Source: Macrostomum lignano (lineage: Eukaryota). From it: a stretch of 29,497 nucleotides of DNA. Below the pieces are notes generated by a model. That model was given only the letters and a program-made list of their open reading frames with translations, did no database searches and was not told the DNA's origin. Made by a program: the position numbers and the translations under genes. How positions within the stretch are numbered: the first letter of the stretch is position 1; each line of letters starts with the position of its first letter. The stretch covers positions 1 to 29,497 of the forward strand of contig NIVC01000796.1 in the NCBI GenBank assembly GCA_002269645.1. Reading direction: 5' to 3'. This document shows, in pieces, positions 1,354 through 29,497 of the stretch.

Positions 1354-3811
1354 CTAATCAGACTCTGCGCGAGCATCATCCTGCAGCTGGCAGCCGGTGC
1401 ACCGGAATATGTCGTGCTTCACGTGAATACACTGGCCGCCGGAGTTGACCCGCCTGACAAAGTCTATGGGCAGATCGGCGGGAGGGACATGGCCAGCGAG
1501 CATCACCGGGCCGCTCCATTCAGTCAGAATGAGGGCCTTGTGCTTGGCGTTGATGGTAAATTTATCGCGATTGAGCAGCAGAAGCAGCTGCTGCGAGGAG
1601 GCCTGCGAGACGCTTAGCTCATCAAAGAACAGACACCTATGAATGCCCAGGCGCAGACCGTCGAAGGCAAAACCCTCGTCAAGGTTCGGAGTGAATACGG
1701 TCTCACGACCAAAATGCAGGCCCACCATTGCTGATTTGCCCACTCCACTGGCACCCCATAGGTACAGGATTGAGGGCACAACTACAGTCTGCCGCATCGC
1801 TGTGCAGATTGCCTGCTGAATCGCGCAGCTTCCACCTAGCGCGATGCGGTGTGTTGCCACATTGCTGCACCCCGGCTGATCCGTATTTGAAGCGGCTGTG
1901 TCGCCGCGTGGAGGCACCTGCATGCATTGTACAGGCAGAGGGTGACATGCCCCGCACATACTCGGCCAGACAATGGTGCTGGGGAGCAGTGACACGCCGT
2001 GCTCTTCGGCACGAATTCTGCGCATCTGTTGCACCGTTGTAAAGTAATCCATGGTCTGCTTCAAAAGCAGTGGATTACCGCAGACGAGATGGGGGTCGTC
2101 TGGTCGCGGTGCCATACTCCCCAGCGGATATGACATAGCCCATCTGTACAGTTGGACAACGCGGGACAGACAAGCGTCGTCGATTTCGGTGATGGCGGCT
2201 GTGGGGTCGTGCATGGTCACCCGTCATATTTCGGCAGCTGCTGAGCGCACGCTCCTGATCTCGGCGCATGTCCATCCCTGCACCGCAAAGGTGTGCAGGC
2301 TGGAGCCAGACGCGAAGAAGGAATTGTGCATGGCATTGGATCGCAAAAATATCAACAGCGATCGTGTCTTGTCCACAGGGCAAGATGGAGTCGGGGCGTA
2401 CGCGTCAGTCATGTGCGCGGGAGTCAGCATAAATTCGTTATCTGCCAGGCCTTATTACATACAGTAGTAGTAGTTGTTGTTTGTTGTGGTGGCGTTGGGG
2501 GATGGGTTAAAGAGTTTCTTAAAATCGCATGTTCTACGTAGAAGATAATTGTTATGAGTTTTTCAGACACTTGTGAAACGACGCAAACACTCACTCACTC
2601 ACCTATGGCAAACTGTGTCGCGAAGTCGCCGCTCCAGGTGCCGTTGATCATCAGCTTCATCTGGGGCGCGTTCTTGACGTAGTACAGCTGAATCACCGAC
2701 ATTGCACGATGCGAACGCCGGCTCGCATTAGCCGAAAACATTATGTCGTTTGGTATGGTGTCGCTGGGATGCAGCGACACGGACGATGCCAGAAGGCGCG
2801 AGCTCGTTCCCTTCGGCGAGGTGCTAGCCGGCTGCTGCTGCCGTTCCTCCCCCTCTTCGTGGAACAGTGGGATCTCGCCGGCCGGGCAGGTCGTCTCTGC
2901 GAGGTTATATTTAGCTGTCGCCTCCATCTCCCTGGCCGCCAGCTCGTAGCCAGAGGCCAAAGCCCGCTCGCGCTGCGTAGCACTCGACTGCGGTACGGCT
3001 GCGGCGGTGGCTCCTGTGTCGTCGGGAAACAACAATGTGAAAATGATACTACTGTAATATGAGAGAATGTAGCATGAGCAAAAGTGTGAGCGCGAAATGC
3101 ACGTAACCTACCTCTCGGGTAGAACGTCGTCGGCGGGCGGCTCGACCGAGGTCTCGGTGAGGCTGTCGGCGTCATGAATCGGAAGGCAGCAGTAGGAGCA
3201 GCAGGGCGAGTGGTGAAGCGCCAGGGCGCGCCGATGCCGCACGGGCCGATCCTAGGCTGCCGTAGAAGGTGCGGCTTCGGTGACGCTTGAGCAGCAGCGG
3301 CAGCAGAGTCAGTAGTATGGAATGAGGGCGACGCCTTCGGAATAAACTGCAGAGTCGGCGGCTGGTCGCCGCAGCCGGCGACGTGGTCAGCAGGATGCTG
3401 CTGCTGTTCGTCGTCGCTACCGCTGCTGTAGACAATTAATCGCGGCAGCTTGTTAAGCAAGCCGCGCTGCTGGCTTGGTTCCGGCGTCTCATTGGCTATG
3501 ATGCGCCGAGAGGGCGTTGCGCTGCTCGTCTGCGGCGTGCTGACATCTTCTAATAGCATCCGCCGGCGACTGGGTTGCTGCTCCTCATGAAAAGTAGTAA
3601 CAGCAGCGGCAGTTTCCAACTCCTTCTCATGACAAGTAGCAACAGCAGCGGCAGCTTCCAACTCCTCCTCATGACAAGTAGCAACAGCAGCGGCAGCTTC
3701 CATCTGCAGTTGCTCCGCCTGCCGCTCTTCAGCAGCAACTTGTTCTTCGAGCTCGAGCTGCTCTTCCACACTTAACATTATCTCGTCGTCGTCGTCGTCG
3801 AACATGCTCAC
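1354..3811 (-). pseudogene. Spliced gene: acidic low-complexity N-terminus plus CRESS-Rep-like superfamily 3 helicase (disrupted)
   Basis: C-terminal part has Walker A LYLWGASGVGKS (about 1732-1770), FAFDG (WxDGY-like), Walker B CLFFDE, B' LLLLLNRDKFTINAK, motif-C-like PVMLAGH and Arg-finger-like DFVRRV. Two frame-restoring introns: 3111-3052 (GTAGGT..TTACAG, 60 bp) and 2602-2442 (GTGAGT..CAG, 161 bp). One in-frame TGA at 2226-2224 and a frame discontinuity near 3250. TATATAAA on the minus strand about 100 nt upstream of the ATG. Confidence 0.8.
3585..3710 (-). repeat. Three tandem 42-bp (14-aa) coding repeats in the helicase-gene N-terminus
   Basis: AAAAVATCHEEELE / AAAAVATCHEKELE / TAAAVTTFHEEQQ. 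Confidence 0.85.
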
Positions 3812-4030: not shown

Positions 4031-6850
4031 TTAACCATGAGCTGACGGATGGCCCAAATTCGGGTCATGGCTCAACACCCAAAGCCAACGGGGAATTTTT
4101 TTATATCTATGGCCAAAAAACCAGCAAAATTAGCACACCCGTTCTGGACTGATGTGGCCCGAAATCGGGTCAAGTAGTGGCCAATAAGATAGTGAAAACG
4201 CACTTAGAAAAGATAGACTGTAACAAAACAAAGTAATTTCAATTACTCATATATTTTTCTTCTGTTTAAAAGTTAACGACTTAAATTATATTAGAACATA
4301 GTGAAGTGGGGTCATTTTTTTAACTGGAGTGGTCAAAAATGGAGGGAAGCTGTCACAATTGTCACGCTGTCACGTCATTTTCTGTAGAGTTGATTTTAGA
4401 AAACTTTTAGAAAACTGGAAAGAAACAGGTAATACAAAACAACAAGCATCTAAATTTATTATAACTCCAAATTAATACGGAATAATGTAATTTCTATCCA
4501 CGATAATGCAACAAATATATTATTTTATTTCAAGGGGCCTTGGTGCTAGGACTGAGGTCTAGGAGCTGAGAGACCGGGTCCCTGGATTGATTGCGAATCC
4601 TCGCCATCTCTAACACCCCCTGCCTCCCCCGTCTCTGCGCCTGCGGTTATCACTGTGCGAATCCGCCCCTTCCTATTGTAATTCCCTCACCTCTACCCCT
4701 GTGCTCATGACCCTACCCTCTTCTACTGTTTTCTGATTCCTACGTCTCATATTAGTAGTTTCTGTAACCAGGACAATTTCTGGACTATCTGTAACCAGGG
4801 GCTGTGGTGGCACCAATTCAAAATGAAGTCAAAATAGAAAGGCAAATTTGCGGAAAGGGTGGATACTACAATATTTTCTATACTGTCTAATACACATCGC
4901 CAGGCGTCAGACCTAATTGGTTTGAAATTGCATGAAGCAAGCACCAAGGCAGAGTGCTGGCGTTCCCGGGCAAGCTTCGCATACAAACACTGTCTTCTTC
5001 ACTTGGCCAGCCGCATAGCATACTCGGCATCGTTTGCGTGGCCGAGCCTGGTCCCTGTGTCTGGGAGCTTTGCTTGGAGAATGAGCAGCAGCTCCATTGC
5101 CTACAGCACCGGCAGCTGCTCCATCTGGCATTCGACCGCGTCGCCTGGCAACACCAGTGTCCTCCAACAGATATTTGACTGCGAGCCTTATAAACTGCAA
5201 GAAGGTCTTTGTGCCGCCCGATTGCTTGAAGATGACCCAGGCATTTCTCACAAGCATCAGGAAAAGGTGGAACCCAAGCTTGTGGAACCAGCGCATGCTC
5301 TTACGATTGGCTAGGTAAGGGTGCATTGAAGCGTCCAGATGGTCAACACCACCCATGCTGGCACAGTATGCTAACACACTTACAGGCTTCGGCACCACCT
5401 GCACGGCACCTCCACGACGGGTACGATGGACCTGGATGCAATAAGCTTTTCCTGCTGTATCTAGCAGATACACAGTTTTTATGCCGCTCTGCTTCCTGTC
5501 GACAAATTTGCAAGCCAGTAGGTTCCCTGAGCGAGCGAATGCAGATGAACTCGGATGTAGGTTGGCAGCTTGCAGTTCAGCTGGGATACCGCGGTTTTTC
5601 CGTACTGTTCCGGTTAGCAGCGTATCATGCTGCAACAGCCAAGTAGCCAGCCGCTGAGACTTAAACCAACTGTCGGTCAAGACGTGGTGTCCAAGATTAA
5701 GCAAACTGCGGCACAGTTCTGCAACAACCTTCTCACTCATCGTCAAGTCCTGACACCCGAGGCCTTCACCGAACTGATTATTGACCTCAGGGAATGTGTG
5801 GACGACGAAGTTCCATAAGTACGCACTCTCACTCTCACAGATACAATACATTTTAATTCCGTATTTACTTTTCTTTGTTGGAATGTACTGTTTAAAAGCA
5901 ACTCTGCCCTTGTACAAAACGAGTGTCTCATCAACCGACAGTCACTGCCGTGGCATGTAATTGTTGCTGCACAGATGCTTTACGCTGTGCAGAAAGGGCT
6001 CCATCTTTGCCAGAGGGCCATCTCCTAAAGCCTCAGCGCAGTTGTAAAAACGCAGGCAGGACAGCAGCTGCTTGAAGCGGTCTCTTGAGAGCGAGAATGG
6101 CTTGGCCAGAAGGGAGCAATGAAACGCTGGATCGGTTGACCAGTAGTTGGCGATTTCCGGCTTCTTGTCGACACCCATCAAAAGCACGATTCCAACTAAC
6201 GAACTTCATCCGTCGTTGAGTCCCGCCATTTCAACACTTGCTTCGGCAGTGCAGCCTCTGTTTCGGCTTCTTGAAAGATTCTCCAAGCCTTAGCATTAGT
6301 CCAATTGCTGAGGTCTTCGAACAACTGGTCTGAAAAAAAAGCTTTAGGAAAGCATCTTCGTTTCCATCAGCAGTTGGTGGAGGCTGCCAGTCTGGTCGGA
6401 TGCCAGGTGTTCCGAGAAAATCGGGTAGGGCTGATGGCCTGTTGTCCTCATTCGGTTGAACCATGTGCCACCCACCGGCTTGCTCGTTGTTCTCAGCGAT
6501 GTCCATCTCATCGTCCTCAGACCATTCGAAAGTTTCATCAGCGGTGGAATACTGACTCGACGAAGTATCAGAGTCGAAACTGGCGTCTGAATCTATGTAT
6601 GTATATTTGCTTGAAACAGAAAATCTCTGTGCAAACTCTACGCGCAGGCAGTCAATAAGTATAAGTGAAGTCTATGTAGAAACTCTGTGGTACTTTAGAA
6701 ACTTTTCCCGGCGGGAATGGGTGTGAGCATTACAAGAAAAAATTCTAAGAAAAAATAAGAATAGAAAAAATTTGTCAATAAACTTGCCCCGCTGTTGTAA
6801 ATTCGGGCATACACAGTGTATATTTGGGCAGTCGTAGACTGTACATTGTA
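4031..6850 (-). mobile_element. piggyBac DNA transposon (decayed; right end uncertain)
   Basis: TTAA-CC start at 4031. Subterminal GGCCC(A/G)AA(A/T)TCGGGTCA repeats near 4050 and 4156, and a related motif near 6800. Contains the transposase pseudogene. No clean matching TIR plus TTAA found at the right end. Confidence 0.7.
4913..6590 (-). pseudogene. piggyBac (PGBD-type) DDD transposase pseudogene
   Basis: YWSTDP, SRDRFKQLLSCLRF, LSVDE (D1), YIPTKKSKYGIK, TDSWF (D2), MGGVDHLD (D3), C-terminal Cys-rich CRVC..CEAC..LC..CF. Broken by a frameshift near 6340 and in-frame stops near 6200 and 5942. Confidence 0.95.
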
Positions 6851-7101: not shown

Positions 7102-7250
7102 TAGCACAATCGCGGCACAGTGCCCAGCACAATTCCCGTTAAATATACGCGTAGCTAAGCGCAGCACAACTGTATTGTCTGACAGACAGCACTACTCACC
7201 GGCTATTAATTTAGGGGAATTGTGTTAGGCACCTTGCCGTGATTGTGCTA
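7102..7250. repeat. Imperfect inverted repeat: arms of about 43 bp, 64-bp spacer, two GCACAAT boxes per arm
   Basis: Reverse complement of 7102-7144 (ATTTAACGGGAATTGTGCTGGGCACTGTGCCGCGATTGTGCTA) aligns with 7209-7250 (ATTTAGGGGAATTGTGTTAGGCACCTTGCCGTGATTGTGCTA). Confidence 0.9.
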
Positions 7251-7359: not shown

Positions 7360-7419
7360 AGGCAGATAAGAAATTGTGCTTGGCACCGGAGGTGCCAAGC
7401 AGCAATTTCAAATCTGCCT
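7360..7419. repeat. 60-nt hairpin
   Basis: AGGCAGAT-aag-AAATTGTGCTTGGCACC-gga-GGTGCCAAGCA(g)CAATTT-caa-ATCTGCCT. Confidence 0.9.
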
Positions 7420-7768: not shown

Positions 7769-9326
7769 TTAGACAGAGGCCGACACGCGGCACAATTTAG
7801 GTTTCTTACTGCCGTTGCGTCTGGCTTTGCAGCCGGACGTCGCCGCCGCCGCATCGGACCAGTCGAACTCCGCCGCAGCCGCCGCCGCTGCACTGGACAG
7901 CAACAAGGAGCGCGTGGCGTCCACAGCAGCCCGCCGTTTCGACGCGAGTTGCGGCACTGCAACCACCTCCGAATGCCGCTGCTGTTGCTGCCGCTTCTGC
8001 GACATTGGCTGCTGCCGCTGCTGAGTCGGCAGCTCCTGCGAGACCCGAGCGGCGATCAGCTCCCGCTGCTGCTGCTGCTGCTGCTTCTGGGACGTTGATG
8101 CTGCCCGCTGCTCAATCATTCCGCTGACGGTGACCTGCATTTCTGTACGACTGGCGAGCACAGCGTTCGGTGCGTAGTGTCGCATAATCATGGTTGTCGA
8201 AGTCTCATACAGCGCCGCCATCTGCTGTATTAGATCAGGGTTGTTCGCCATGACGACGTCCTGCGTCGAGCTGCGGAACACAGTTGGCCCGACGCCTTCC
8301 CGATGTAGGATGCCAGCTGCTCCGGATTCCACAGCGTGGCTGAATGTCGACGGAGACATACGCGTGCCATTGCGGGTGCAAAATACAAAGACCTCGTCAT
8401 CATAGGCGCAGTTGCCGAAGCTCGCGCCTCGACGCCACTTGCGGAGCATCTCGACAAAAGAAGTTGGCAGACAGAGCACGCTGCAACCGACAGACTGGCG
8501 TTTCTTGTGGCAAAGCCTATCATTGTCCCGCCTATAGATGCTGTTTGGCTCCAAATAGGCCAGGCGAAGGCCGCACCATGGCTGGATGCGCAGAGGATGT
8601 TGTACCGTGGCATGCAGCGCAAACCGATTGCGCAGCTGGACCTCCTCAGCGTTAAGGCGGACACCGCCGCTGCCGCTCAGCGCCGCGACAGTTTCGTCAT
8701 CGTCTTCGTCATCTTCGTCAACCTCGATATCGCCAGACTCGTCGCCGTCACCGCCGCCGCCGCCGCCGCCGCCGCCGCTGCTGCCGCCGCCGCCGCTACA
8801 TCGGCACAACCGATGGGTTAGCAGCAGCGGACTCCAGCCGTTGACGCTTCGGCTGCAGCGCTGTCGGGGCACTGGTGAAGGCCTCCTCGTCGGCGAAGAG
8901 TTCCAGCTTGATAGTAGCCGCGACCGAGCTTCCTTCGTTGAACGAGTCATCTTCATCACTGCTGGAAGGCACCACGACGTTTGACACCTTCGTGATGACG
9001 CATTCATCGTCCGCGGCTGCGTTCGATTCGGCCTGGGTCGCTGGCGCGAGCACGACAGGTAGCACTTCCGGCGCCGCCGTAGCAGCCGCCTCAGCAGCGC
9101 TGCAGGCAGCCAGAAGTTCCGCGTCGAAGAAGACGTCTTCTTCGTCATCGTTAGCCGTTGGCTGGTTTGATTCGGTGGCGGCAAGATCGGCTGCAGTCGC
9201 CATCAGGTCGGCATCTTCAGCTGCATAGGCAGCTTCGAAGGCCGCATCGATTTCCGCATCGGTCAAGGGGTACCACACGACCGAGTTGTTGCTGTTGTTG
9301 CTGTTTTTGTTGTTGCTATAGCTCAT
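7769..9326 (-). pseudogene. Tyrosine-recombinase-like gene, copy 1 (acidic N-terminus plus catalytic domain; frameshift near 8800)
   Basis: HPLR (Arg), HKK (Lys), PTVFRSS (Arg) and MRHY (Tyr nucleophile) appear in YR order and spacing. The acidic N-terminal ORF 9326-8796 is in a different frame. Clear paralog at 27911-28906. Confidence 0.7.
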
Positions 9327-9904
9327 AGTTGCGTTAAAAGCAAATTAATTCTTTTAAATTCGAGTGCTGCAGTTTGCTGGAAAGGAGGCAGGATAATTAC
9401 ACTAAGAATTATTAAGCAGCACTAAGCTTTACTTTTAAAATATACAAGTTGTAGAAACAGTAACTAGATACTTATATGCATACGAGTTTTTTTACTTATT
9501 GAAGTTGGCCAATAGATTATTGCAGCGGGCGGGATGCTGTGCGTTTCACCCCGTTTCAACACGCCTAGGCTAACTATAATATTTGATATATTGCGATACG
9601 GCAGATAGTTTGGGCCCTAGACAAACCTACTGGAGCAATTGGAGATTTTAAAGCTATTAGTCCTATTTGTCTATCGCCGGTCGGCGAATCCTACCAAGCT
9701 TTCTTCAATAGTCGCAGATACGGTACAAGAAAATGAATAACACGGTTGAATGCAATTCCAGATAGATTTAGATTGAGTGGTGTTCCTAATCTGACAGAAT
9801 GACTGACAGAGACTTGAATTGAATCCTTTAATTTAATTAACTCCAAATATACACGGATTGAAATAACGCAATTCGCAATTTAACACTTGACAAATGATGT
9901 ATAT

Positions 9905-10038
9905 AATCTTTGTCTGTTCTTTTGGTTCCTTTGGCAGAGAAAGGCCGAGGACGCTGTTCTCAGGCCGAGGCGAAGCCGAGGCCTTAGAATTGCGTCCGAG
10001 GTCTTTCTGCCATAGACACCAAAAGAACAGACGAAGAT
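9905..10038. repeat. Imperfect palindrome of about 130 bp centred on GAGGCGAAGCCGAG
   Basis: TTTGTCTGTTCTTTTGGT..GGCAGA..GGACGC on the left mirrors GCGTCC..TCTGCC..ACCAAAAGAACAGACGAA on the right. Inner arms TTCTCAGGCC / GGCCTTAGAA. Confidence 0.9.
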
Positions 10039-10254
10039 CGTACTTAATCTACAAATATTGGAAGCGACTGGGAGTGGGAGAGAGGTATTCGTCAAAAGCG
10101 GGGGTGTGGGCCCCCCACATTTAACCATAGACAAAAATTAAAGTAAAAGGTTCGATGCTTAAATTAAAAGCGAGAAAGGAAAGGTTTGGGCAGCTAGAGG
10201 AAATCAGAGAGAACTGAGAATCATGGAACGCGACTTGGAACTCGCTTTCGACTG

Positions 10255-10545
10255 GTGAATGACATTGAACTGAGAGAAAACGAGGCTTCTAGATTTGCTT
10301 TACTGTCCGATAACGAGGTTGCTGAAAGGATTGACGCTGCTGTGCCGGAATCGACACGCCGGAAGGAACGATGGGCACTAAAGCAATTTGACGACTGGTT
10401 TCAGGAGAGGCAAACCAAACTGCTTCATGGAGACGCCTGCGGTCTATCTGTGTCTACCTATCGGCCGGCATACTCTCGACTCCAATTGTGGCGAATATCA
10501 CCAAACCCGTGTCTACGGATGGTAAATTCTCAAACCAGTCTCTAA
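10255..10545 (+). pseudogene. Crypton-like (KCTD1/ZMYM-related YR) N-terminal fragment
   Basis: RFALLSDNEVAERIDAAVPESTRRKERWALKQFDDW resembles the Crypton core-binding N-terminus. Catalytic domain absent. Confidence 0.65.
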
Positions 10546-10800
10546 GGAAGACTTGTGCCAGCAGGTTGCATCGGGCTGGACTGGCTAGAGACGATGGAGT
10601 CCAATGGGCGGACCAGTCGTGTCTGAGGGTACTACCAAGAAGATGCGCATGACTGTCCACGGTGACACCAACAGCGTAGAAATCATGTTCGAGTAAATCG
10701 GCAAGAATGAATCGGTCTTTACTGCTGTTGATAGTTTATACTTCTAATGGACTAACTGACAAATTATAGTCGTTCTAAAATATTCTCAGGCCTTGTTCTT

Positions 10801-10826
10801 AGGCCTGTTAACCGGTTAACAGGCCT
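10801..10826. repeat. Perfect 26-bp palindrome
   Basis: AGGCCTGTTAACCGGTTAACAGGCCT is its own reverse complement. Confidence 0.95.
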
Positions 10827-11769
10827 CGTTTTGAGTTCTCAGGCTTAGTTTTTTAGTGAGGTTGGCCATAGACTATCGTTCTACTAGAAAAGAAGGAGCC
10901 TAGGAATTTAGTGTGAACCGTCATATCTGTAGGTTAAAATAAAATAATTATCACAAATTGGTGAGCGGATCTCAGCACTGGAAGAAGTGAAAAGATGAAA
11001 CCAGGAGCACAAGACTAACGGAGAAGCTCCCTAACACCACTGGCCTAAATCCCAAGGTCCTACTCTCAGACGAGGACACTGACGGCCGGACAGTTCAGCG
11101 AATCCCTGGCCAAATTCTACCAGGTATGCCTTTCAGTGAAACACTGGGGCCCTCAGAATCGAGGTCGCGTACTACGTCAAACCGACAGTTCCTATCTTGA
11201 CCACGCTTGCCGGCGACAAACTCTGAACAAGGTTGTCGCGATTGTTACGCCGGCAATGCTATTGCGGTCGGGCAGCGGAAACAAAAAAGGAGGCCGGGGC
11301 TTGACTCAATAAAAGCTCCTCAAAGCGCGGCAGATGGCAAAACGGCCGGGAGATAAGAACGAAGCCAGGCCAAAACCAGAAGTAAGATCCGACCGCCAAA
11401 ACATACTTTCATAGTCTCTCCAACCCCCCCCCCCTCAAGCCGGGTGGTGGGTGTCTGGCTGGCCGCTCGATAATCCAAATTGCACTGATCCTGCGGCGCG
11501 CTCTCAAGCCGGGTAGAGCTGGTTTGCCGCATGCCAGGGGTCCAGGCCGGTCCTGATTGCCTGGCAACGCAAAGCCGGAGTACATTGGCAAGTTTGCCAA
11601 GCCAGAGCCACACTGGCTTGGAAATGCGTCTAGCTTTTCCGACCTGTTTACTATAATAAACTTGTAAAAGCACTTTGAAAAACCTGACTAAAAATAGAAT
11701 GGAAACACAATTAATAATTAATGACAATTGAAGGCAATTTACATAAGATGCTCACATTACAGTCACCAT

Positions 11770-12821: not shown

Positions 12822-13787
12822 AAATTCTCATGTTTGAACAGCCAACGCTCTGGGCCGCTTCAAACAGTGATCGGCTCGGTATTGGTCAGCAGGTTTTGTT
12901 AAGCTCTGTCAGGCTCTTTCGGCTGTTTTGCTGTGCAAATGCCTGATGTGGTCGAGTTACACGGACCATCATTAGAAGATTCTAGTGCAGCTGCATGGCT
13001 AAGCTGTTTAAATTTTCATTGGTCAACTGCGTTTTGCAGTAGATTGCAGACGCTGAAATTGCAGGATACATTTATCGTCGGATTGAACTCTCACTGTATT
13101 GTAAGTAATGTGATGCACATACAACTGATAATAGTACGACTAAAGTAATAAAAAGACTATTTAAGTAAAACTGTAGCTAAAATATGCAGAATGTATGACT
13201 ACATAGGTTATAAGGGCAGATGGCACCGTTGGCGACGGTTAAGTAGTTTAAAAATGCAAGCAATTTAAAGATTGATGTGTACTGTTGTAACATACAGTAA
13301 TATTATTGTGCATTGTGTCTATGAAATTGCACTCAATGCGTATTATTCCTATGGCGAATACCTGCTGCTCCTTTTATGTTGCGTGTTTTGCTATTATGCT
13401 TTGTAAGCAGGAGTGGGTGCATAGGAGCTGAAGAGATACAAGACAGAACATGGCCCCTGTAGCATAAAGTGTATCTGTTGTGGATCCAATTTAAAAAAAA
13501 TTGATATACGCGCCATGACCCTTTAATATACGCGCTAGTGTACCTACTACTGAGACTACCAATATTAAAACGATAAGAAATAAATGAAAGCTAAACGCAG
13601 CAGAAAAGGTAAATTTGTAACTTTACTTGCGCCAACTGCACAGGATTTTCACGATAATATGAAGGAGGGGAACAGCATTTACTTAAAAAAGATACCCTCC
13701 TCCTTTTTCAACCGGGCTTGGGACTGGCTTTGGCTTTTACCCATCCACCTCGTATTCTGTATCAACTGTTCTAGACTTGATCGAAGC

Positions 13788-14027
13788 TTTATTACCCCTC
13801 GCATTAAAGATTGGCCCGCGTAGTCAAATAAAAGTGACTACTCTCATCATGGCGGGACTTTATTATTACCCCTCGGATTAAAGATTGGCCGCGTAGTCAA
13901 ATAAAAGTGACTACTCTCATCATGGCGGGACTTTATTATTACCCCTCGGACTAAAGTTTGACCCGCGTAGTCAAATAAAAGTGAATATTCTATCAAAGCG
14001 AGGCTTTATTACCCTGCGGATTAAGTA
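13788..14027 (+). repeat. Tandem repeat, unit about 73 bp, just over 3 copies
   Basis: ATTACCCCTCG.A.TAAAG.TTG.CC(C)GCGTAGTCAAATAAAAGTGA units start at 13791, 13865, 13938 and 14008. Confidence 0.95.
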
Positions 14028-15579
14028 TTGCACATTCTTTTGAATTTTTGCCCCTCTTTTAACTTGGAAGTTCCATTCACTTTAGACAACCCATGAGCAT
14101 GCCCAGACTTGCATGCCCAGACTGAAGACTAGATAGCGTCTGCCTTAATAGGATAATCTGTGTTTAACTCACTGGGCCTGCTGGAACATAATTGGAACTA
14201 TGCTACAGATTTCGGCTAAGACACCCAGCTGTACAAAACAATATACATAGTTTGTGTCTTGGCCTAATGACCGACGGACGGGATGGGGAGCGGGTCCTCC
14301 CGCCGGAGACACCCAAGGTCCCAGCCCCAACCCTGGCTATGCCTACGCGACCCTGACCGACCCGGCGAGATTTCGCCCTGGCCGATCACCCTGGGACTAG
14401 CGAGAGTTCGCCGACCTCAGGTTCCTACTCAATCCCACCGGCCCCTCGCGGCAACCCAGAAGAAAGAAGCGCGAGCTCACTCCTAGTCATCGATTTAACA
14501 GCTTGACGAAGCGTATATTTGGCCGACCAAACGCAGAGCAGCACAAACAGCAACGGACGCAGAACGCAGACAAACAGACAAACAGTGGGGCGCAGAACGC
14601 GGAAAACAGTGGAGCGCAGAACAGACAAGCAGTAGAGCGCAAATCGCAGACAAGCAGTGAAGTGCCGAATGGGCAGGGCGAGAACTTAAATAGAATACTG
14701 TACACCAGAGGGGGGTAGAAAGGAGAGGGGCAGGCCAAACCCTGGGGCTTAAGGCAGCTTATCAGCCCGCCAGTCAATGCGAGAGGCCCAGGGTGGGGCG
14801 GAGCAAAGAGGGAGGGGTAGGGCAAGCGCACAGATTGGAAAGGGGACTGGGCGCAGAAAAGACTAGGCCATGGTAGAAGCTTACGCCTCATAAACCCCGG
14901 CAAGGGCGCGAGACGGTGGACGGGGCGGCGCAGCATGAAAACACGAAAACAAAAACAAGGGGCAACAGAAGGGCAGGGTAGACTGAAAGGGCGCTGCACA
15001 AGAATAGGATGCTTCAGAAGTAATTAGAATAGTCTGAGTGCAACACATCCAAAAGGCATCCTCATTTGTTGTATGGTACAGTACACAGACTACATGCTAA
15101 CGGGAGTCAAACCTTTGTACACAATAATGCAACTACCTTGCACTAAATGCAAATTAGTAGAGTATACAAAGGATGGTTGCGACCTCACATTACGAGCAAT
15201 ACAGTTTCAACAAGTCCTTTATTTAATGCAGAGGTTTAGCGCCACTGACTAGGTGGATTCCAGGGATAGCTTGCCGGGGTAGCTTGTTATGTCATTAAGT
15301 ATGACAGCCTTCCATCGGAAGCACTCTTATTTTATCCCTAACTTTCGAATCTTGTCTTGTCATGATTCGGACCTTGTTATTTGGTAAAATTCGGATTGCT
15401 CACCAGATTAGAGTCAAACCAGATAACATTAAAATTACCTGGTAACGAATCTGGTGGTTTTACCAGTTTCGCACCCTAAACAAGCATTGGAAGTATAGTG
15501 AATCTGACAAGATTCGCAAATTATCTTGTGGTGTTATCTGGTTTATTTTCCAGAGGGAGTGAGCTAGCTACCGGTTAGG

Positions 15580-15630: not shown

Positions 15631-15849
15631 TTGGCACCTCGTCTACGTCGCGGAGGGTAGCCGCTTCATCTGGGGGCGGTCAAAGAGCGCCAAAACTCGG
15701 ACACAACGTCGAACGAGCGAGTTTTTTGTATTTACACTCTAAAGAATCTCGCTCAAAGCGATCATCCACCAAGCCGCGGGAGCGCCCTGCTCATCAACGC
15801 AAGCGGAACTCTACGTGGTCAAGCTGGCCTAAATTGGCTCGAAGGGCGC

Positions 15850-16440
15850 ACCAGCAAAGGAGAAAGCACCGTGATCATTAGCGACAGTCAGAGCACTCTA
15901 CAGGCTATTAAGGGCTTGAGCAGAAACACCTTGGCCATTAGAGTCAGGAAAATGCTGAGGAAGCTGGAGGAGGAAGAGAAGGTGGTTAAGCTAATCTGGG
16001 TGCCCGCGCATTGCGGCTTGACAGGAAACGAGTTGGCGGATGAAGCAGCGAAAGAGGCATCAACCTGGGCCCAGGAAGGCATCAAAGTGCCACCCAGCAG
16101 CAACAGGAAGTACAGCCAGAGCAAGCTGGGCAGAGATAACGGCAGAAGCCACAGGAGAAGCAGGGAAACCTATGGAGAGCAGGGGGCGGAGCCCCAGCCG
16201 AAGGGCCTGAGCAAGCAGGAAGCGTTTGACTTCAGACGATTCAGGAGTGGCCACTCTATGGACCTAGCAGAGTACAGGAAGCGCATAGGTAGACAAGAGG
16301 AGGGCTGGTGTACGAGCTGCGGCTTGGAGACCGAGACGCTTGAGCATGTCATGGCGTGCCCCGTCACGCGCAGCCTTAGGGAGGAACTGGACCTGCATGA
16401 GATTCGAGTCTTGAGTAGGAGACCAGGGAATCTGCAGCGT
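15850..16440 (+). mobile_element. Non-LTR retrotransposon 3' fragment: RNase H plus C-terminal zinc knuckle
   Basis: IISDSQSTLQAI and LIWVPAHCGLTGNELADEAAK (RNase H); RFRSGH...CTSCGLETETLEHVMACP (CCHC). Confidence 0.9.
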
Positions 16441-17665
16441 CAGAAACAGCACCTCAAAGATTGGGCACCACGCTTAAAAAGGCCCTTTTCCGAGCACAAT
16501 CTCCCTGGCGTCGATACAGACGAAAACATCGCACCTGTATCCATCGACCTGAACTGTCCGTGACAATGTATCGGCTTCAAACTTGTCTTGACACTTTCTG
16601 AACAAGGAAGGGGACATCCGAATCGAGAAGACAATTGCAATTTTGCATGTTCGAATCATATTAAATTCAAGTGGAAGCAAAAATCATTTCGTAATACTCA
16701 CATACCAGGTACTGATGTTGTAATACGATAACAACAGCTTAATTACTTCCAGCGCAGAACTATTAGCTTATTTTCCCGTAGTCTAACCAGGCTTGTATCG
16801 ATAGAATCCAGGACAAGAATCTTTCGTCGCTTAGCACACACAACGATAAGATAAAAGTGCTCCTTGTGTAAAAAAGGATTTAATGTCTTATTCAAGCCCT
16901 GGGAAATATACAGTGAACTAGAAAATTACGAGCTAAAAACAACTTTGCATTTGAGAAATGCTAGAGTTACTACGAATTTACTTTTACATACATGTTACAA
17001 GAAAAAGCAATTATTCGTACCTTATACACTAAAGTCCTTTTCGACAAAATTTTCCTCTTAAAAGTAATATTGTTATTATTGATATCCAAAATGCTGTGAA
17101 AGTCTCCCTTGCCAATGACAAATTCGTTGGTGCGCCTGAAGTAAGTGCTGTGCAGTAAGCCGGTAATATCTACACCTTTTTCCATTCTATTTTGGCAAAC
17201 GTGCAATCAAAGTCAAAATCTTTTCATTCAATTCAGACAGTTTATGGTAGTTCTTGGCCGGACGTGCATTCAATTCCGACAAATGTGCTTTCAAAAGCGA
17301 CAATTTTCAAACAAAGCAAACAAGCTACCACGAGAAACCGACACTTTGCAATCAATTCAAACAATTTGCAATCCATTCCGACAGTTGGCTATGAATTGGC
17401 TTTTTTCTGTCCTCCTATCTATGGCTCATACTAATACGCTCGTAATGCCGAATGCAAAAGTGAGTGACAACGATCGGCAGAGGCTCATCGACGCACACGC
17501 AAACGGAGACGATTTTGGGCATCTTGCTCGAGTATGTACTCCAGTGGCTTGTCTAAATAGATTGAAATTTGTCGGAATTGATTGGAAATTTCGCAGTATG
17601 AGCCATAGATAGGAGGACAGAAAAAGCCAATTCATAGCCACTGTCGGAATGGATTGCAAATTGTT

Positions 17666-18530
17666 CCCTTTTGTCTATGGTTTCCGGCATTCATACTTGC
17701 GGTAACAATTTAATTGTTTGTCGGCTTTTTTCGATTGTTGCCGGATTTCAGACGAATGTATTTGGCTATCAAAACAAGGAACAACAATAGCAACACGGCG
17801 AAAGTGCTTTCGAAGGGATGAATAGAAAAGCCTCAGATAATCGTTCAAAAATCGATCCGGAACACGCTCAAACTCCTGGCAGAGCCCCTTCTCGTTGAGG
17901 AACTGTCGGAACCTTGCCACGTGAAGCTTCCGTTGCGTCTCGGTCGATTTCGGCACTGAGTCACTCTCAAGTCGGTCCAACATTTCCAGATCTTCGCTAC
18001 CTAGCTCAGGCAGCCCGTTGGAACTGGACGACGCATCCAGGTTGTCCATCTCCAGAACGTAGCGCGTGCTCGACTCTCGGGTGACAAAAGCCAACTCGTC
18101 CGTGGAGAGTCCACATATTTCTCCGCCAGGAATGTTTGCGTAGCGAATCATAGCTACTTTTCCTATTTGCACTCCGAATAGGAGAATTAATTCAAGCTCA
18201 AAATCAACTTGAGAATTAACTCATGGCAGCCAGGCTAGCTGTCTTCACTGTCCTTTAAATTTGCCATAAACGATTAATTATCTCTACAACCCTTTCATTT
18301 AGAGAGCAACTAAATTTGCCATTGACGATTGATTATCTCTACAACCCTTTCAAAGCGCATTCCGGCAACAATCGCATTTCATACTCAGCATCCGCACTAT
18401 GTCTGGGCCATAGACAAGGGAAGTCAAAAGGGTACAATAATGACATGTACCGATTTTTTTCGGCAGCAATTGCGCGCTTCAGCTTACGCAATTGCTGCCG
18501 AAAAAAATCGGTATATATCGTTACATTGTT
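17666..18530 (-). mobile_element. Non-autonomous Crypton-like insertion, 865 bp
   Basis: Flanked by a direct ATTGTT. Encodes DSVPKSTETQRKLHVARFRQFLNEKGLCQEFERVPDRFLNDYLRLFYSSLRK (Crypton/KCTD1-like N-terminus). Inverted CCCTT(TT)GTCTATGG / CCATAGACAAGGG at 17666 and 18408-18420. Confidence 0.75.
18448..18513. repeat. Perfect hairpin: 27-bp arms, 12-nt loop
   Basis: TACCGATTTTTTTCGGCAGCAATTGCG-cgcttcagctta-CGCAATTGCTGCCGAAAAAAATCGGTA. Confidence 0.95.
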
Positions 18531-18907
18531 TGAATTGATCGCAAAGTGTCGGTTTTTCGTGGCAGCTTGTTTGCTTGTTTGAAAATTTTCTAGTTTGAAA
18601 ACTAGACGGAGTGGCCGAGGGCGGCTATAGGCTGCAGTTAGGCAGACGATGGAGCGGCGATGCGCTGAAGCGGCGAGGCGCTGGTGTCGTTCAGGCATTG
18701 CTGATGATGATTGGCGGTAACAGACCGCGGACCGGCAGACGAGCTCACTTGGGGAGCTGAGATAACTTGGCGGTAACAGACCGCAGACCGGCAGAGGTTC
18801 GTCTTATAGACGAATAGGTCAGAGCAACGTCTGACAGCAAGTCCACAATAGGACGCTTGAGAAGAAGCGCGAAAAGGTTTGAGGATTCTCATGCCGAAAA
18901 CCGCTTC

Positions 18908-18990
18908 CTTATATAGTCTTCCCAGCCGCCGCTCCAAGGTCGTTTCCATGACTCCCTCTCTCTGATTGGCTGCCGGCAGAATGACGTCAT
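18908..18990 (-). promoter_or_regulatory. Pol II promoter-like cluster (CRE, CCAAT, TATA)
   Basis: ATGACGTCAT at 18981-18990, ATTGG at 18965-18969 and minus-strand TATATAAG at about 18915-18908, in promoter order. Confidence 0.5.
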
Positions 18991-19734
18991 AATGAGTCAT
19001 GATGAGAAGCATGAGAACGGCATAGCAACATAAGAAATGGGAAAATTGCGCAATCCGGAGGTGGGGTGGGGGGTAATTGGCGCAGCGGGAGGTCGCGAAA
19101 GTGTTGCGCAAGCAAACATTGAGAACAATGGGGCTGGGGTCGAGGACAAAGGAAATAGAAAACGGGAATAATTGGGGAGAATCGAGAACAATAGAAAAGC
19201 AAACATTGGAGAAAATGTGATAATTGGGTACGAAAACGAGAACAAAAGAAAAAGAAAATCGGAGAAAATGTGATAATTGGGTGCGAATAGGAGAACAAAA
19301 GAATCGAAAACGAGAACAATAGAAGCGGAGGTGGGGTGGGTGTCGCATGAGAAATTTGGGGAGGAGAACAATAGCATGAGAAAAGGTTGCGCAAGAGAGG
19401 GGGATGAGTCATCGATGAGTCATCGAGGGGAAAGAGGGGTCACACGACTTGCGTCACCGTTTGAGAGTTTGAGAAGGGATGGGGGAACGGTGAGCGCACG
19501 AAGTACTGTAAGTAGACACTGAAAAAGGAGGAACAGCGCAGAAAAATAGTGCAAAAAGAGACCAAAAGATGGGGGACAGGAGAAGTACATAACGAATAGG
19601 GTAGAGCGCATAGGAGATAGGGTAGAGGGGGAGGTACAGAGAGGGACAGGGAGCTCCGGAAAGGCATGTGTGGCGGCCAGGAAGACGGAACCGAGGCAGC
19701 AGGAGGTGCAGCAGAGCGGGAATCTGCAGGCCTG

Positions 19735-20500
19735 GTCAGAGACTGAGCAGTCGCTCAGTGACGTAGCTGTCGTTTAGGCCTTGCATGAACTGCTCGAGAA
19801 CTATTTGCTCCACAAAGACCTGGGCTCCCAGTTCCGGGTGCGCCCGAATCGTCAACCGTTGAAGCTCCATCGGGTACTTTTAAAAGCTCTCGTCAGATTT
19901 CCGATGTCGAGCACGGAACTCGCGATGAGGAAGGGCTGCAATCTTGGCACCACCGTGACGTGAGCGGTGGTGTTCTACCAGATCCTCGTAGTCCACCCTA
20001 GGTAGCTGATCCAATGTTAACCCGGGTGGTAGACCGAAGTACGCGCACTGCATTGCCAGCCAGGTAGTGTACGTTGCGTATGCCGGACCTTCTCGATGTC
20101 CGGGAGGCCGGGGAATCGACCAATGTGAGCGCCGATCCTGACGAGGAAGTCGTCGAAGTCTTCACGGCCGTTGTATGGCGGAGGATTTGGCTCCGAGGGA
20201 AGAGCAAGCCGTTGATTAGCCACTGGCAGTGCTGCATAAGCCAGCAGGAGGTTAGGCGGGGCGTACTCCAGCTCCGGGACATGTCGAGCTGGACGGTGAA
20301 CATCTGCATGGAACAGGTTTATTGAATACGACTGCGGCTGTGTCATCCGTGGATCTTCGTCTGTGATGAATGGGTTTGTCGATCTGCTGGCTGCTGCAGA
20401 CACAAACGGGTTGTACGAACTCGAACTGGACGCGATGCTTGGCTCCGCTGATGCAGCTGCATCTGCCGTGTTTGCTCGTCTGACGAGTCGTTCTCGAAGC
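19735..20500 (-). pseudogene. gag: Ty3/Gypsy-type gag pseudogene
   Basis: PPPYNGREDFDDFLVRI, YLAGNAVRVL, YEDLVEH..REFRARHRKSDESF, ELQRLTIRAHP, EQIVLEQFMQGL, read across frameshifts and stops. No pol present. Confidence 0.8.
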
Positions 20501-21479
20501 TCCAGGATGTCGTCGTCGTTCGGGACTCGTTCTACATAATGAAGCACTAGCGTGGTCGCCAAATATAAATGCCCACGTCTCAGTTTGAAATAATGAAGTC
20601 GTGCAGACACCAGGCAGTTACTTGTTGGCTGAACTCATTGGTCGAAAGGAGAGAAAACCCTTAAAGATTCTGGCTCAAACCATTACTGTATTTATAGTGA
20701 TTGGCGATGATTCCAGATTACGTGCGATAGCTTAAAAGCGTAATTCACGTGCAGGACTAAAACCGATTCGAGCATCTAAGCGAGTCGGGGAAACGAGGCC
20801 CGGAGGGAAATTTGAGGCCTGTGTGACTTTTAGTGTGAGCTTGTGTGAGCTTTTCTGTGTGAGCTTTTAAGCAGGGAAAAGATCACACACAAAAGCTCCC
20901 ACAAATGGTGAAAACGCTCGCACAATGCAACGATCTCTACAGATCTCGGAGATTTAGGTGTAAAATTTTCACCCCACCTACTGACAGTAGGCTACTAAGT
21001 GGATGTAACGTCCCGTTTATATAGTTAGTAGCATATGCACCTGATTTTGACTTTATAGTTTTGCAATTGAATGTCCATGCAATTGCACGCTATGGCGTAG
21101 TACTGCAATTGTGGTTACGATTAGAAGCCACAGCTTCCTCTAACGAAGAGAGAGACTAATATATATGTAGATACACAGCATTTCTATTCGACTGGAATAC
21201 AGCAGTCAGATGCAGAAGGAAGCAGTGCGTTTTACAATGTAATTAAACAGAATGCAATGCGATCGAAGTTGCAAAAAGCGCGAAAGAAGGCAGCTGCAAA
21301 ATGTACGGATAAAGGCTTTGCCAGCCAGTCGCCTCGCGTACTCGCAGCCTTGCCACACCGTGCACGCTGCAGCGTTGATCTTGTTGGCAGTCGTAATCCA
21401 ATGCTGCGTGACATCTTGGGCTGTAATGCAGCAGCCCAGTGGCAAGACGCAGAGATGCCTGAGGCCAGACAGTATACGT

Positions 21480-21591
21480 ACCTCTCACGACTCTTAATTG
21501 GAAACTTGTGGAAGCGAAGTCCTGGTACATTTCTATCCGCATATGATCTGCATCCGTACGATGCGCACTGCAGACGTGGCGCTGTCGGCAT
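21480..21591 (-). pseudogene. THAP zinc-finger N-terminal fragment
   Basis: MPTAPRLQCASYGCRSYADRNVPGLRFHKFP matches the THAP C-x4-C...FHxFP start. The remainder is broken. Confidence 0.65.
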
Positions 21592-24145
21592 GACGACCCG
21601 AGAAGACGAGAAGCTACCAGAAACAGTTGATTTATTGCAGCTGCAGTAGTGGAAATTAGATAAAACCAAGAAGCGTATGGAACGCAACAGTATTGCGGAG
21701 GCAGCCGATGAGAAATAACAAATGGTTGAAGACAAGATCCATCCAAATAGTAATGAGTTGAAGGAATATATGAGAGTATAGGAATGCAATGTTTAAGCCA
21801 TTGACAAAATAGTGGTGATAATCGCGATAATCGGTGATCATCGCAGGAGTTGCATGTCATGAATACATTTTTGCCACGTTTTTTTATGCAGAGGGGTCGA
21901 TTGAGCATTCTGGTGTATTCTGTAGTCTCAACCGCCTCAGCTGGAGGTTCCGTCGCAGCGGCCGCAGCAGTCGCTGCAGCCTCAGCCGGACGCTCCGTCG
22001 CAGCAGTCGGAGGAGTCGTCGCAGCCGGAACCGTAATATGTGCTGCATGTCCCGGCACATGTCGAGAACACGTGCCACGTTCTCAGCTCCTGTCTCCATG
22101 GACGCAAACTGCCTGCTGATCTGGGCATGAAACTCCGCTGCCTCCCGGTCCCGATCGGCGAGTTCCGCATGCAGCTATTGACATCGCATGCATGGCATTG
22201 GGATATGGGCAGCGTCTTGGCAGTGCTCGTCTGAGCCGGTCGAGCAACCAGACTGCGAAACTTCTTAAAGCTGGTTGAGAGCGACAGTGCTAGTGCCTTG
22301 TTGTCCACGGCGTCCGTTAAGACGGAGGCACGCTGCACACGGTTTCTTCCACTGAAACGCCTGCCTCCCTGCCGTAACAGAGGTTACTCGGAAGAGACGC
22401 TTCGCTGTCTTCATTGAACACCGCCAGCTGTTGTCGACCAGCTACAGCAATCTCCTGCGGCGTTGTACTATTATCATACATTACGACATACCAGGAGCCA
22501 CAGTCTGCAACCAGATGACGGCAGATATGTAATAAAATGCACCTGTCGGAAAGCGTATGATATGTCGTCTGAGTAACATCTGGCATTTGATTACCGGCGT
22601 TCGCCATTGGCAGGGAATGCAGCGCGTGCGATCTGCAAAAGCATTAATGCAGTAAGTCTGTATAGCAGCCAGCCACAGTGGCCACAGGTACATGTATTCA
22701 CATTTTTAGTACGGACAAAGAAATTAGGCATTACTAAAGAATTGATTTCTGGCATAAGTTTTTTTTTCTAATTTACATAATTTATGTTTTATTGAAGCTT
22801 TAATGAAGCTGAAATTCTTCATTTCCATTGGCTTCAATTTGAAATTGTACAGTTTTAGTTAGCTTTCTTGGGCATTTGGTATACTTAATAGAAAAAGTAT
22901 ATTTATTAGAAAGTGAAATTCTAATAGCATTTTTCAAGCTAGTAGAAAGTGCGAGCATGGAACTAAATACACCATTTTACCCTCGATTTTGAACAAGAAC
23001 TTCAAAACCGACAAACCCCTCTTCAATATTGACACTCTATGGTCGGGCACTCAAAATCTACAATCGATATTGACAGATGAAGCTTTAATTTTGACAAACT
23101 CTGGTTCAATTTTGACGATGCACTTTTAGTCATCTTCTGGGAGAATTGTGAATTCAGTAATAAAGTAATCCAATGAAAGCCTGAACAGGGCTGAATTATC
23201 TGGGCAAAATCAGCTCATTCTGACTTTGCTTTTGGGATCTACAAGTATTGATAAAATTGCATGACACGCGAAAAATAACTATCCCCATTTTTTCGACACT
23301 ATTTCGGCTAAAAATCATTAAAACATAAAACTAAAAGACCTATAGGCCATATGAAAAAATGAGAAACTGCTCCAACTCAAGCATTTACTCGGGCCTGTAT
23401 GAATAAACTGAGAAATTTTTCTCAAGAGAATTCGCTCAGATTTCAGAGCAATTACTCAGGTCAATAAGAATAAAACTACTACCATAGACTAAATTTCTGA
23501 GCAATTTAATGAGATTCCTCATTAAATTCATTCCTCATTCCTCATTCCTCATAAATTTGATGAGGACGCACTTTTTTCCAAACCCGCGCTAGCACATGGG
23601 CTCTAAACTTACTAGCCTACTAACAGTGGGCAATGGGCATTTTTATCCTTTTTCTGCGATTTGTCGTATAATCTATAGTAGATATAATGTTTGGTCATAC
23701 TAGTAGTCGTAATAACATAGGCGCAGCTTTTTGGGTCATAAATCATCGCTCTCGAAGCTGGTTTGACAGCCACCTGCGCCTCACTCAGTGTTGAGGCGGG
23801 CGCCAGATGTCTGAGGGGATGCGAATGATAGCTTTTTTCTCATCATTTTTGACAGGCCATCAGATTTATGAGGTCAGAGCCTATTGTTCGGGTTCACTGA
23901 AGCGTGTGACAGTTTTGACAGCTATGCGTTTTACCCCTAAAAGTACTTTGGGATTAGCGATTAGCGATTTCTCTTCATTATCTTCACTTCTCTATTTAAT
24001 AAGAGCTTTCTAATGAATATTTTTTCATTCATTTTTTTCAATTCTACGCGAAAAGTCATAAATCATTTTGTTGCGATTTTGAGTGATTTATGGCCGCACC
24101 TGTCATGTTTTTTACGACCCTGTGGGAACTGATAGGATCTCCCGG

Positions 24146-24277
24146 TCACGTGATTTTGGGTGGCAACTAGCTCATCCAATCAGAAAATTCGACGCTCATT
24201 TTAACAAATCGGCTCAGCCAATCAGAATCGACGTGTTCCATTATAACAAACTGCGGTCCAGTTGGCGGCTATTTAAA
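24146..24277 (+). promoter_or_regulatory. Pol II promoter-like cluster (E-box, two CCAAT, TATA-like)
   Basis: TCACGTGA at 24146, CCAATCAG at 24176 and 24218, TATTTAAA at 24270. No downstream ORF identified. Confidence 0.45.
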
Positions 24278-26744: not shown

Positions 26745-26912
26745 TGGTAAAGCGCACATTTACTAGATTTCATATAATGGTAAAGCGGTATTTAAAGTTT
26801 TAACGTTGTGGTAAAGCGGCCAACAGTTGAAATTTGCAGACAATGGTAAAGCGGTACTATTTAAAGTTTTAACGTTGTGGTAAAGCGGCAAACAGTTAAA
26901 ATGGTAAAGAGG
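26745..26912 (+). repeat. Six TGGTAAAG(C/A)G repeats with spacing of about 33 bp
   Basis: Starts at 26745, 26778, 26809, 26844, 26878 and 26902, partly within a duplicated unit of about 66 bp. Confidence 0.9.
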
Positions 26913-27016
26913 CGGTAGACGCGCAGCATGCCTTGAAATTGTGCAATTTTAGGCTCTAGTGAATTGTGCCATGCCATTTTCAGACAGCAGTATATCTATT
27001 ACTATAACTAATTGTA

Positions 27017-27050
27017 TCATCATCATCATCATCATCATCATGATCATCAT
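27017..27050 (+). repeat. (CAT)n microsatellite
   Basis: About 10 CAT units. Confidence 0.9.
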
Positions 27051-29157: not shown

Positions 29158-29190
<33 letters not shown>

Positions 29191-29497
29191 CATCTTTGAG
29201 CAGACCGACAAGATCAGCAAAAAGGTGTCAATGAGAGCGTCAAGATGGCCGTCATAGGCTGGGTTGCGCACGCCTGTTGCATCGTTCCAATACAATGACT
29301 GGATTACACGCAGCTGCTTTATCAGCGGAGCATCGGCCGAATACTGCGCCAATAGCGAGGAATGCGCAGTGTAATCACAGCAAGGCATCACCCGCCGCGA
29401 TCGCCTCCTTGGCTGACATGGTCGTCGTCTTTGTCGTCGTCTCCGCTGCACCGCCGACGCTGACTGCCGCAGTCGAAGACGCGCTTGTCGCCGCCGT
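27911..29497 (-). pseudogene. Tyrosine-recombinase-like gene, copy 2 (core-binding plus catalytic region; frameshifted; 5' end beyond the window)
   Basis: HPLRVRPW, HKK, PNIFRSS and MRHY. The upstream frame SSGTVRNRAQALIKCMQY resembles a core-binding helix. A 1-nt frameshift near 28905 (AAC AGG TG) and another near 29385. Confidence 0.75.

Follow-up and report, generated by a model that had tools for sequence, protein, structure and literature searches.

We consider it fairly probable that the open reading frame (ORF) at positions 7772-8803 (minus strand) of the window, as we call the whole stretch of 29,497 nucleotides of Macrostomum lignano DNA analyzed here, is the truncated recombinase of a group of approximately 8-kb two-gene elements, which would be excised as circles and reinserted by a crossover within an 8-10-bp core. 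Elements of this group are bounded, dispersed, and precisely inserted in the genome, and carry both a tyrosine recombinase and an SF3-type helicase gene. The earlier note on this DNA had described an atypical active site shared by two diverged paralogs, without recognizing the gene as the recombinase of a mobile recombinase-plus-helicase element; the truncation of the first paralog, the frameshift of the second, and a Pro in place of the acidic residue after Arg-I are likewise additions to it.

Three nested and decayed units are partly preserved in the window, amid unrelated transposons. Unit 2 contains copy 1 of the recombinase (7772-8803), made of a catalytic domain (8111-8656) and a low-complexity tail. 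Its N-terminal half, corresponding to the core-binding domain, is gone and 12 residues are missing before the catalytic Lys; copy 1 is most likely a dead, internal-deletion derivative. Through a GCC repeat (8737-8800), the recombinase core is fused, in a different frame, to an acidic ORF (8799-9326, minus strand). A weak similarity (E = 0.095) suggests that this ORF is probably exon 1 of the unit's helicase gene. The ends of unit 2 were searched for and were not found. Unit 1 contains copy 2 (27914-29496, minus strand, running off the window end; ORF 27914-28984), which has core-binding and catalytic domains and is frameshifted near 28,870-28,890, whereas its counterpart on C2956 is a single open frame of 644 codons. 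Unit 3 consists of a helicase gene, whose recombinase falls outside the window and is seen, broken by insertions, on C2956 and C3789.

The two window copies share 42% identity over 291 columns (E = 3e-65), and a Pfam search of both ORFs gave no match. Mapping the codons (all on the minus strand) bore out the active-site signature claimed for the two ORFs: both retain Arg-I (8588-8590 in copy 1, 28670-28672 in copy 2), Lys (8504-8506, 28550-28552), Arg-II (8273-8275, 28316-28318), and Tyr (8174-8176, 28217-28219), and both lack His-II and His/Trp-III. The His-II place is taken by Thr in copy 1 (8282-8284) and Asn in copy 2 (28325-28327), and the His/Trp-III place, nine residues before the Tyr in both ORFs, by Thr (8201-8203, 28244-28246). 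As for the identities reported between their N-terminal blocks, the second (17/28) agrees with our count, while the first comes to 24/37 instead of 25/37.

Searching the six-frame translation of the animal's own genome (764 Mb) returned 37 matches out of 48 candidates scored. They comprise recombinases of the window type (group A, with 40-100% identity) and more distant ones at about 29% (group B), and a third group C is located next to helicases; the recombinases of subfamilies A and C are only about 20-25% identical to each other. Full-length open frames exist on C2956 (644 codons), C957 and C1267 (670 and 713), and C150 (885). A profile search of 1.84 billion representative proteins yielded 12 matches, two of which are group-B proteins with Macrostomum lignano as UniRef organism. 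The other ten (E = 3e-10 to 9e-4) are of other origin, and the eight that we looked up stem from JGI, ENA, or Logan sources and bear no informative name; four long outside relatives carry N-terminal zinc-finger-like motifs. No recombinase relatives were found in the viral contigs, metagenome contigs, phages, and plasmids searched, and word-index protein searches gave no match for the recombinase or the helicase, and three for P0009. Six group-B recombinase fragments (P0003, P0004, P0015-P0017, P0019) are named "Ras-GEF domain-containing protein" in UniRef; Pfam detected no Ras-GEF domain in P0003 and P0004, and the name is probably a mis-annotation.

In the alignment of the family (A2), Arg-I and Lys are present in 17/17 rows and the Tyr in 16/16; Arg-II stands in its column in 15 of 16 rows, and is shifted by one column in the remaining one. 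The Arg-I register agrees with that of a CryptonA alignment, and the other registers rest on motif spacing. A His occupies the His-II column in none of the 16 rows having a residue there (T, N, S, Y, M, L, or C are found, never K), and the His/Trp-III column reads Thr in nine rows, Asn in one, and His in six, the latter all being outside relatives; these six of the ten outside relatives thus retain the third His (LQHS) and still lack His-II. The losses are therefore traits of the family, given the absence of His-II from all 16 rows and the Thr or Asn in 10/16 at His/Trp-III. Moreover, dN/dS (Nei-Gojobori) is 0.29 between the window copies and 0.16-0.51 across all 15 pairs computed, with dS near saturation, which points to purifying selection and sustains the view that the substitutions are family features and not decay. 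Collectively, these observations support a recombinase lineage whose substitutions are maintained by selection. Three further columns deserve mention: the acidic residue three after Arg-I is replaced by Pro in 17/17 rows, a His directly precedes the Lys in 16/17, and the position three before Arg-I is Met in all six rows with His-III and His in the other 11 rows with that column. This Met/His swap is a single split (100/99) on the 17-row tree and hence one event, which makes it only a lead; the C150 recombinase, outside A2, has Gln there.

The earlier note had wondered whether the altered active site implies different chemistry. His-II and His/Trp-III are described as the least strict positions of the pentad: Cre(H289A) and Cre(W315F) still recombine, and Cre W315A is inactive, and hydrophobic bulk matters at this position (PMC4381057; further background on catalytic residues is found in PMC13465315 and PMC8371274). 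The Starship captain HhpA carries a Tyr at the His-II place (PMC10104507). By analogy with Cre(H289A) and this captain, the loss of His-II need not alter the chemistry. More unusual is the replacement of His/Trp-III by Thr, a small residue, since W315F works in Cre where W315A fails.

The fold was predicted with AlphaFold2 from a 20-row alignment on the intact C2956 paralog rather than on copy 1 (pLDDT 79, pTM 0.68); a single-sequence fold (pLDDT 38.5) was discarded. The predicted structure is that of a two-domain tyrosine recombinase, with an all-helical N-terminal (core-binding) domain that aligns with those of Cre, XerH, and Tn1549 Int, followed by the catalytic domain. VIA-align matched both domains to XerH (Z 15.2, rmsd 4.6, 240 aligned residues), XerA (Z 14.5), Cre (Z 13.9, rmsd 4.5, 267 aligned), and Tn1549 Int (Z 12.3), and the top PDB rows of Foldseek are Cre, XerH, lambda Int, and XerA, so the tyrosine-recombinase fold proposed from the motifs is supported at the level of the model. 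The viral structures matched comprise unnamed proteins from giant viruses as well as integrases (9-17% identity). Sequence searches alone reveal little of this: PF00589 is hit at E = 0.0075 in two of seven family members, PHROGs gave a weak match to phrog_1 (E = 0.009), and Pfam, PHROGs, and PDB sequence searches returned nothing else relevant to the recombinase.

The affinity to type IB topoisomerases (TopIB) or protelomerases that had also been suggested was not supported. Type IB topoisomerases have KxxR at the His-II place, where this family has Thr or Asn in the window copies and Lys in 0/16 rows. An enzyme of either kind, relaxing DNA or making hairpin ends at the adjacent palindromes, would share the catalytic fold, and TopIB chains and the protelomerase TelK are indeed matched. 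Yet TopIB chains come at rank 29 and lower in VIA-align, with Z at most 11.1 (10-11, versus 14-15 for recombinases) and mostly over residues 183-410, the catalytic half, and TelK comes at rank 40 in Foldseek (E = 0.011) and is not among the best 50 VIA-align rows; the recombinases achieve better scores, which extend over both domains. The palindromes beside the gene, proposed as substrates for cleavage or resolution, do exist, but they are internal to the element and not at the ends, where the crossover would take place; there are several per element, with centres varying from 2 to 5 bp. Rather than forming linear replicons, the elements are inserted in the genome and flanked on each side by host DNA. 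We therefore regard a TopIB- or protelomerase-like activity as hardly credible, the lower TopIB scores (Z about 11) leaving that reading unsupported.

The family is also distinct from the typical tyrosine recombinases encoded elsewhere in this genome. None of its loci is among the 103 genomic PF00589 matches, the top 16 of which, when translated, are CryptonA-like with HxxR and TGH intact. Aligning the profile of the atypical family with these CryptonA recombinases using hhalign gave a probability of 0.1%, i.e., no detectable profile similarity, in line with the distinct clade that had been proposed; of the CryptonA, F, S, I, and V lineages, the comparison covered the first.

The second gene of the elements is represented in the window by unit 3. 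Its last exon (1357-2460, minus strand, stop near 2225) encodes an SF3-type helicase with Walker A (GASGVGKS) and Walker B (FFDE), and its upstream exons (2598-3805, minus strand) an acidic N-terminus, a KPxLxRQPR motif, and a conserved block that stops at a GT donor around position 2600. As in SF3 helicases, Walker A, Walker B, and motif C fall within about 110 residues, the motif C place reading AGH and not the usual Asn. The ATPase ORF (1357-2223) has 37 matches in the genome. The closest helicase relatives found are the Reps of CRESS viruses (six loci, E = 2e-6 to 1e-5): the helicase profile matched seven CRESS Reps over 112 columns (hhalign 96.8%, E = 2e-10), within the SF3 part only, and no profile match to the HUH domain of the Reps was obtained outside the helicase part. 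An ORF at 2598-3107, considered as carrier of an HUH motif, was unsupported by profile comparison. In the C957 copy, the corresponding introns are spliced in RNA-type runs (a run kind guessed by the tool), with a GT-AG joint of 151 bases, whose shorter side spans 27 bases, in 3/4 such runs and one of 376 bases in 1/4; neither is among the joints reported for four other runs. The recombinase core has zero cover in the four RNA-type runs, which carries no evidential weight.

Recombinase and helicase genes are linked more often than expected. Among 31 merged recombinase loci, 12 lie no more than 12 kb from a helicase match (expectation 0.04), although the count includes allelic contigs and the independent cases are therefore fewer than 12; the remaining 19 have no helicase match within that distance. 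Conversely, six of the seven subfamily-C helicase loci fetched carry a recombinase. In subfamily B, the orientation and distance of the two genes vary, and no recombinase was present in the fetched flanks of the helicase loci on C267 and C2362. The group-B regions (C157, C267, C2362, C2367) exceed 12 kb, contain extra ORFs as well as a 21-bp repeat encoding a seven-residue coiled-coil-like unit, and are rearranged between copies; a sharp edge at C157:573730, taken as a candidate end, proved to be an insertion in one copy.

The ends of the elements are best seen on C957, where an 8.1-kb element has flanks unrelated to those on C1267 and C2240. All 17 paralogous empty sites are contiguous across its insertion point, with nothing lost or added, and the insertion point on C1267 is matched by three comparable empty sites. 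The sequence is GC-TATCTT at the left end and GC-AAACTT at the right (GC-TAACTT on C1267). At its left end (L237:501), contigs of two RNA-type runs start 64 bases before the end with a sequence unlike the C957 flank, either the flank of another copy or an end junction. The right end of the copy 2 element lies in the window near 25,780 (25764-25800, minus strand), with a small local duplication, and 8/10 matches, with four types of flank, stop at or within five bases of 25,793. A 10-bp repeat, GACAAATATG, bounds this element at both ends on C4730 and C3789, the same left end being found on C2956, and occurs once at each of the empty sites on C2709, C1811, and C1457. The C150 element (about 7.9 kb) is flanked by ACAAACTT and ACAAATTT, an 8-bp repeat with one mismatch; no empty site for it was found among the loci compared. 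The helicase gene lies inside the same ends as the recombinase on C957, C1267, C3789, C150, and C283, and in both subfamilies A and C, in two different gene orders. Versions of unit 1 without helicase (C4730, C2956) have the same ends as the C3789 version, which retains it. Young copies are 98-100% identical. No ORF for a capsid, packaging ATPase, primase, or polymerase was recognized in three complete elements; the 8 kb is taken up by these two genes plus flanks, with little room for a capsid, although very divergent capsids can escape sequence searches.

Identical repeat motifs flank the recombinase and helicase genes. The window contains 16 copies of GCAYAATT where 3.2 are expected; most form inverted pairs, situated 3' of the genes and within both ends. 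Copy 1 is followed by an imperfect inverted repeat (7102-7250) with paired motifs of the GCACAATT type and by a palindrome (7366-7413) with 16-bp arms and a variable 2-5-bp centre, and a short palindrome with the same motif (849-871) lies 3' of the helicase gene. The palindrome at 7366-7413 is conserved, with compensatory changes, in diverged elements (C957, twice on C1024, C3789), and a pattern built from its copies hits six sites in the genome, of which five fall on known loci of the element and the sixth is adjacent to a helicase fragment on C1651. We propose it as a candidate origin or protein-binding site, either of which its variable centre would fit better than a crossover site. In the right subterminal region of the copy 2 element (26052-27795) we found inverted GCAYAATT pairs (26052-26231, 27083-27280, 27589-27795) as well as GGTAAAGCG repeats (about 26740-26915), and the C957 element has five GGTAAAGCG-like copies in its first 100 bp and five inverted ones in its last 210 bp. 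Such end arrays resemble the arm-type sites of integrases. Elsewhere, 23-bp tandem arrays with GCACAATT are present at C854:42819-43769 and C1471:23481-23557, with the same 23-bp period as the paired motifs of the elements.

We propose that the recombinase, through its zinc fingers and core-binding domain, would bind the inverted subterminal repeat arrays and form a 3'-phosphotyrosine intermediate using its Arg-Lys-Arg-Tyr residues, two new histidines, one located three residues before Arg-I and the other immediately before the Lys, possibly standing in for the lost His-II and His/Trp-III. By analogy with Starships and Cryptons, the element would then be excised as a circle and reinserted by a crossover in a loosely matched 8-10-bp core. 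More speculatively, the helicase might be loaded onto the excised circle at the internal palindromes and unwind it so that host polymerases can copy it, and amplification of the circle might raise the copy number before reinsertion. A circular intermediate has been proposed for Cryptons (PMC3212892), and is described as still undemonstrated (PMC10104507); no circle junction was found in the assembled contigs of eight runs, contigs being prone to drop rare forms. Several observations count against our reading, namely that both window recombinases are broken, that the 10-bp repeat could be an ordinary target duplication, that a small Thr occupies the place of W315, that 19/31 loci have no helicase match within 12 kb, and that subfamily B is loosely organized; the single tree split behind the His swap and the Gln of C150 count against a rebuilt active site. 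A bolder reading, which we put forward tentatively, is that these are self-amplifying integrating episomes of animals, combining a nuclease-less, Rep-derived SF3 helicase with a recombinase of rebuilt active site, and forming a new class between Cryptons and small DNA viruses.

The end signature alone fits Cryptons, whose terminal direct repeats are 4-6 bp long (PMC3212892), and Starships as well, and the elements might simply be cut and reinserted like Cryptons, without episomal replication, the helicase being a passenger or part of a second, often nested element. This would agree with the helicase-less versions that share the ends of C3789 and with the loose linkage in subfamily B. It accounts poorly for the presence of both genes within the same ends in A and C, whose recombinases have diverged so far and whose gene orders differ, or for the same repeat motifs lying beside both genes, and we hold it to be unlikely. 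Given the CRESS-virus relatives of the helicase, and the end module of Polinton-like viruses in which a tyrosine recombinase is paired with a primase-helicase (PMC11296320), the elements could also derive from a capsid-less satellite or small circular DNA virus, integrated in the genome, with the recombinase as integrase or dimer resolvase and the capsid supplied by a helper. Such an origin seems quite improbable to us, as none of the viral hallmark ORFs was recognized in the three complete elements, the viral contigs and phages searched held no recombinase relative, and the genes contain host-type introns.

Finally, the recombinase might be a catalytically dead DNA-binding protein, three usually conserved positions having changed, and movement might occur by rolling circle through the helicase protein, as in Replitrons and Helitrons; Replitrons share the short terminal direct repeats, often without target duplication (PMC10288648). 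Against this stand the catalytic Arg, Lys, Arg, and Tyr, which persist in practically every row despite very long branches, the match to Reps, which spans 112 columns of the helicase without including any of the HUH domain, and element ends that are precise and not fuzzy, which together make this reading very improbable.

Excision as a circle followed by reinsertion thus remains our preferred reading, and the elements can be compared on that basis with known systems. Like Cryptons, they are eukaryotic tyrosine-recombinase DNA elements with short terminal direct repeats, no terminal inverted repeats (TIRs), and a proposed circle (PMC3212892, PMC13465315). Unlike Cryptons, which keep R-H-R-Y and, in the CryptonA copies of this genome, HxxR and TGH, they have the altered active site, their repeats measure 8-10 bp instead of 4-6 bp, and they add a helicase, a word absent from the text of PMC3212892; of the features of Cryptons, the short direct repeats without TIRs are therefore found here, and the R-H-R-Y recombinase and the recombinase-only content are not. 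With Starships they share recombinase-driven movement, end repeats that arise from matching between element end and target, and a replaceable His-II (PMC10104507), but Starships are fungal, giant, and cargo-bearing, with the recombinase first, whereas the flatworm element has 8 kb and two genes, the helicase gene coming first; the Starship captain domain DUF3435 gave no match in Pfam scans. The Xer, Cre, and Tn1549 recombinases, the best two-domain structural matches, have the Arg-Lys-Arg-Tyr at the usual spacing, yet are only 9-17% identical to the flatworm enzyme, in which His-II, His/Trp-III, and the acidic residue are replaced and which has an N-terminal zinc-finger-like region and introns. 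Polinton-like viruses also carry a tyrosine recombinase next to an SF3 helicase, but are described with capsid and morphogenesis genes, long inverted repeats, and D5-like primase-helicases (PMC11296320), none of which was seen in the flatworm elements. CRESS Reps have a related SF3 helicase domain as well as an HUH domain that was undetected in the flatworm helicase, and Replitrons have similar short terminal direct repeats, but possess HUH and lack helicase and recombinase (PMC10288648).

Tyrosine-recombinase DNA transposons are already known, and so are recombinase-plus-helicase modules in the capsid-bearing Polinton-like viruses (PMC11296320). Our literature search, with Repbase and subscription journals outside its scope, retrieved no capsid-less animal element with a recombinase and an SF3 helicase, or with this active site, and DNA transposons combining the two genes probably constitute an undescribed group. 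They would add to the animal DNA transposons a group missed by Pfam-based annotation, neither gene having a curated Pfam match, and the recombinase, a selected lineage without either conserved histidine that is tied to precise insertions, offers a test of how much of the pentad is needed. If the bolder reading is true, they would represent a new element class, in which a small, precise integrase uses loosely matched 8-10-bp targets in the animal nucleus.

The remainder of the window holds further repeats and transposon remains. A piggyBac-like transposase broken by stops (4913-6670, minus strand; PF13843, E = 3.6e-37) lies between units 2 and 3, and a 180-bp high-copy interspersed repeat (9400-9580, 573 candidates) just upstream of unit 2. 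Decayed CryptonA-like recombinase fragments (9880-10900, ORFs 10198-10545 and 10392-10652) are located within a 33-bp inverted repeat pair, and a second Crypton-like fragment is found at 17675-18220, both identified by resemblance to the CryptonA-like loci of the genome. A stretch of 11.4 kb (15982-27416) is missing from the otherwise 97-99% identical C2956, a deletion that takes the right end of unit 1 with it. Also present are a 73-74-bp unit in four tandem copies (13782-14030), a fragment of a non-LTR retrotransposon with an RNase H domain (15661-16563, plus strand; PF00075), and nested inverted repeats with perfect 20-31-bp arms (17289-18600), possibly a foldback or MITE-like element.
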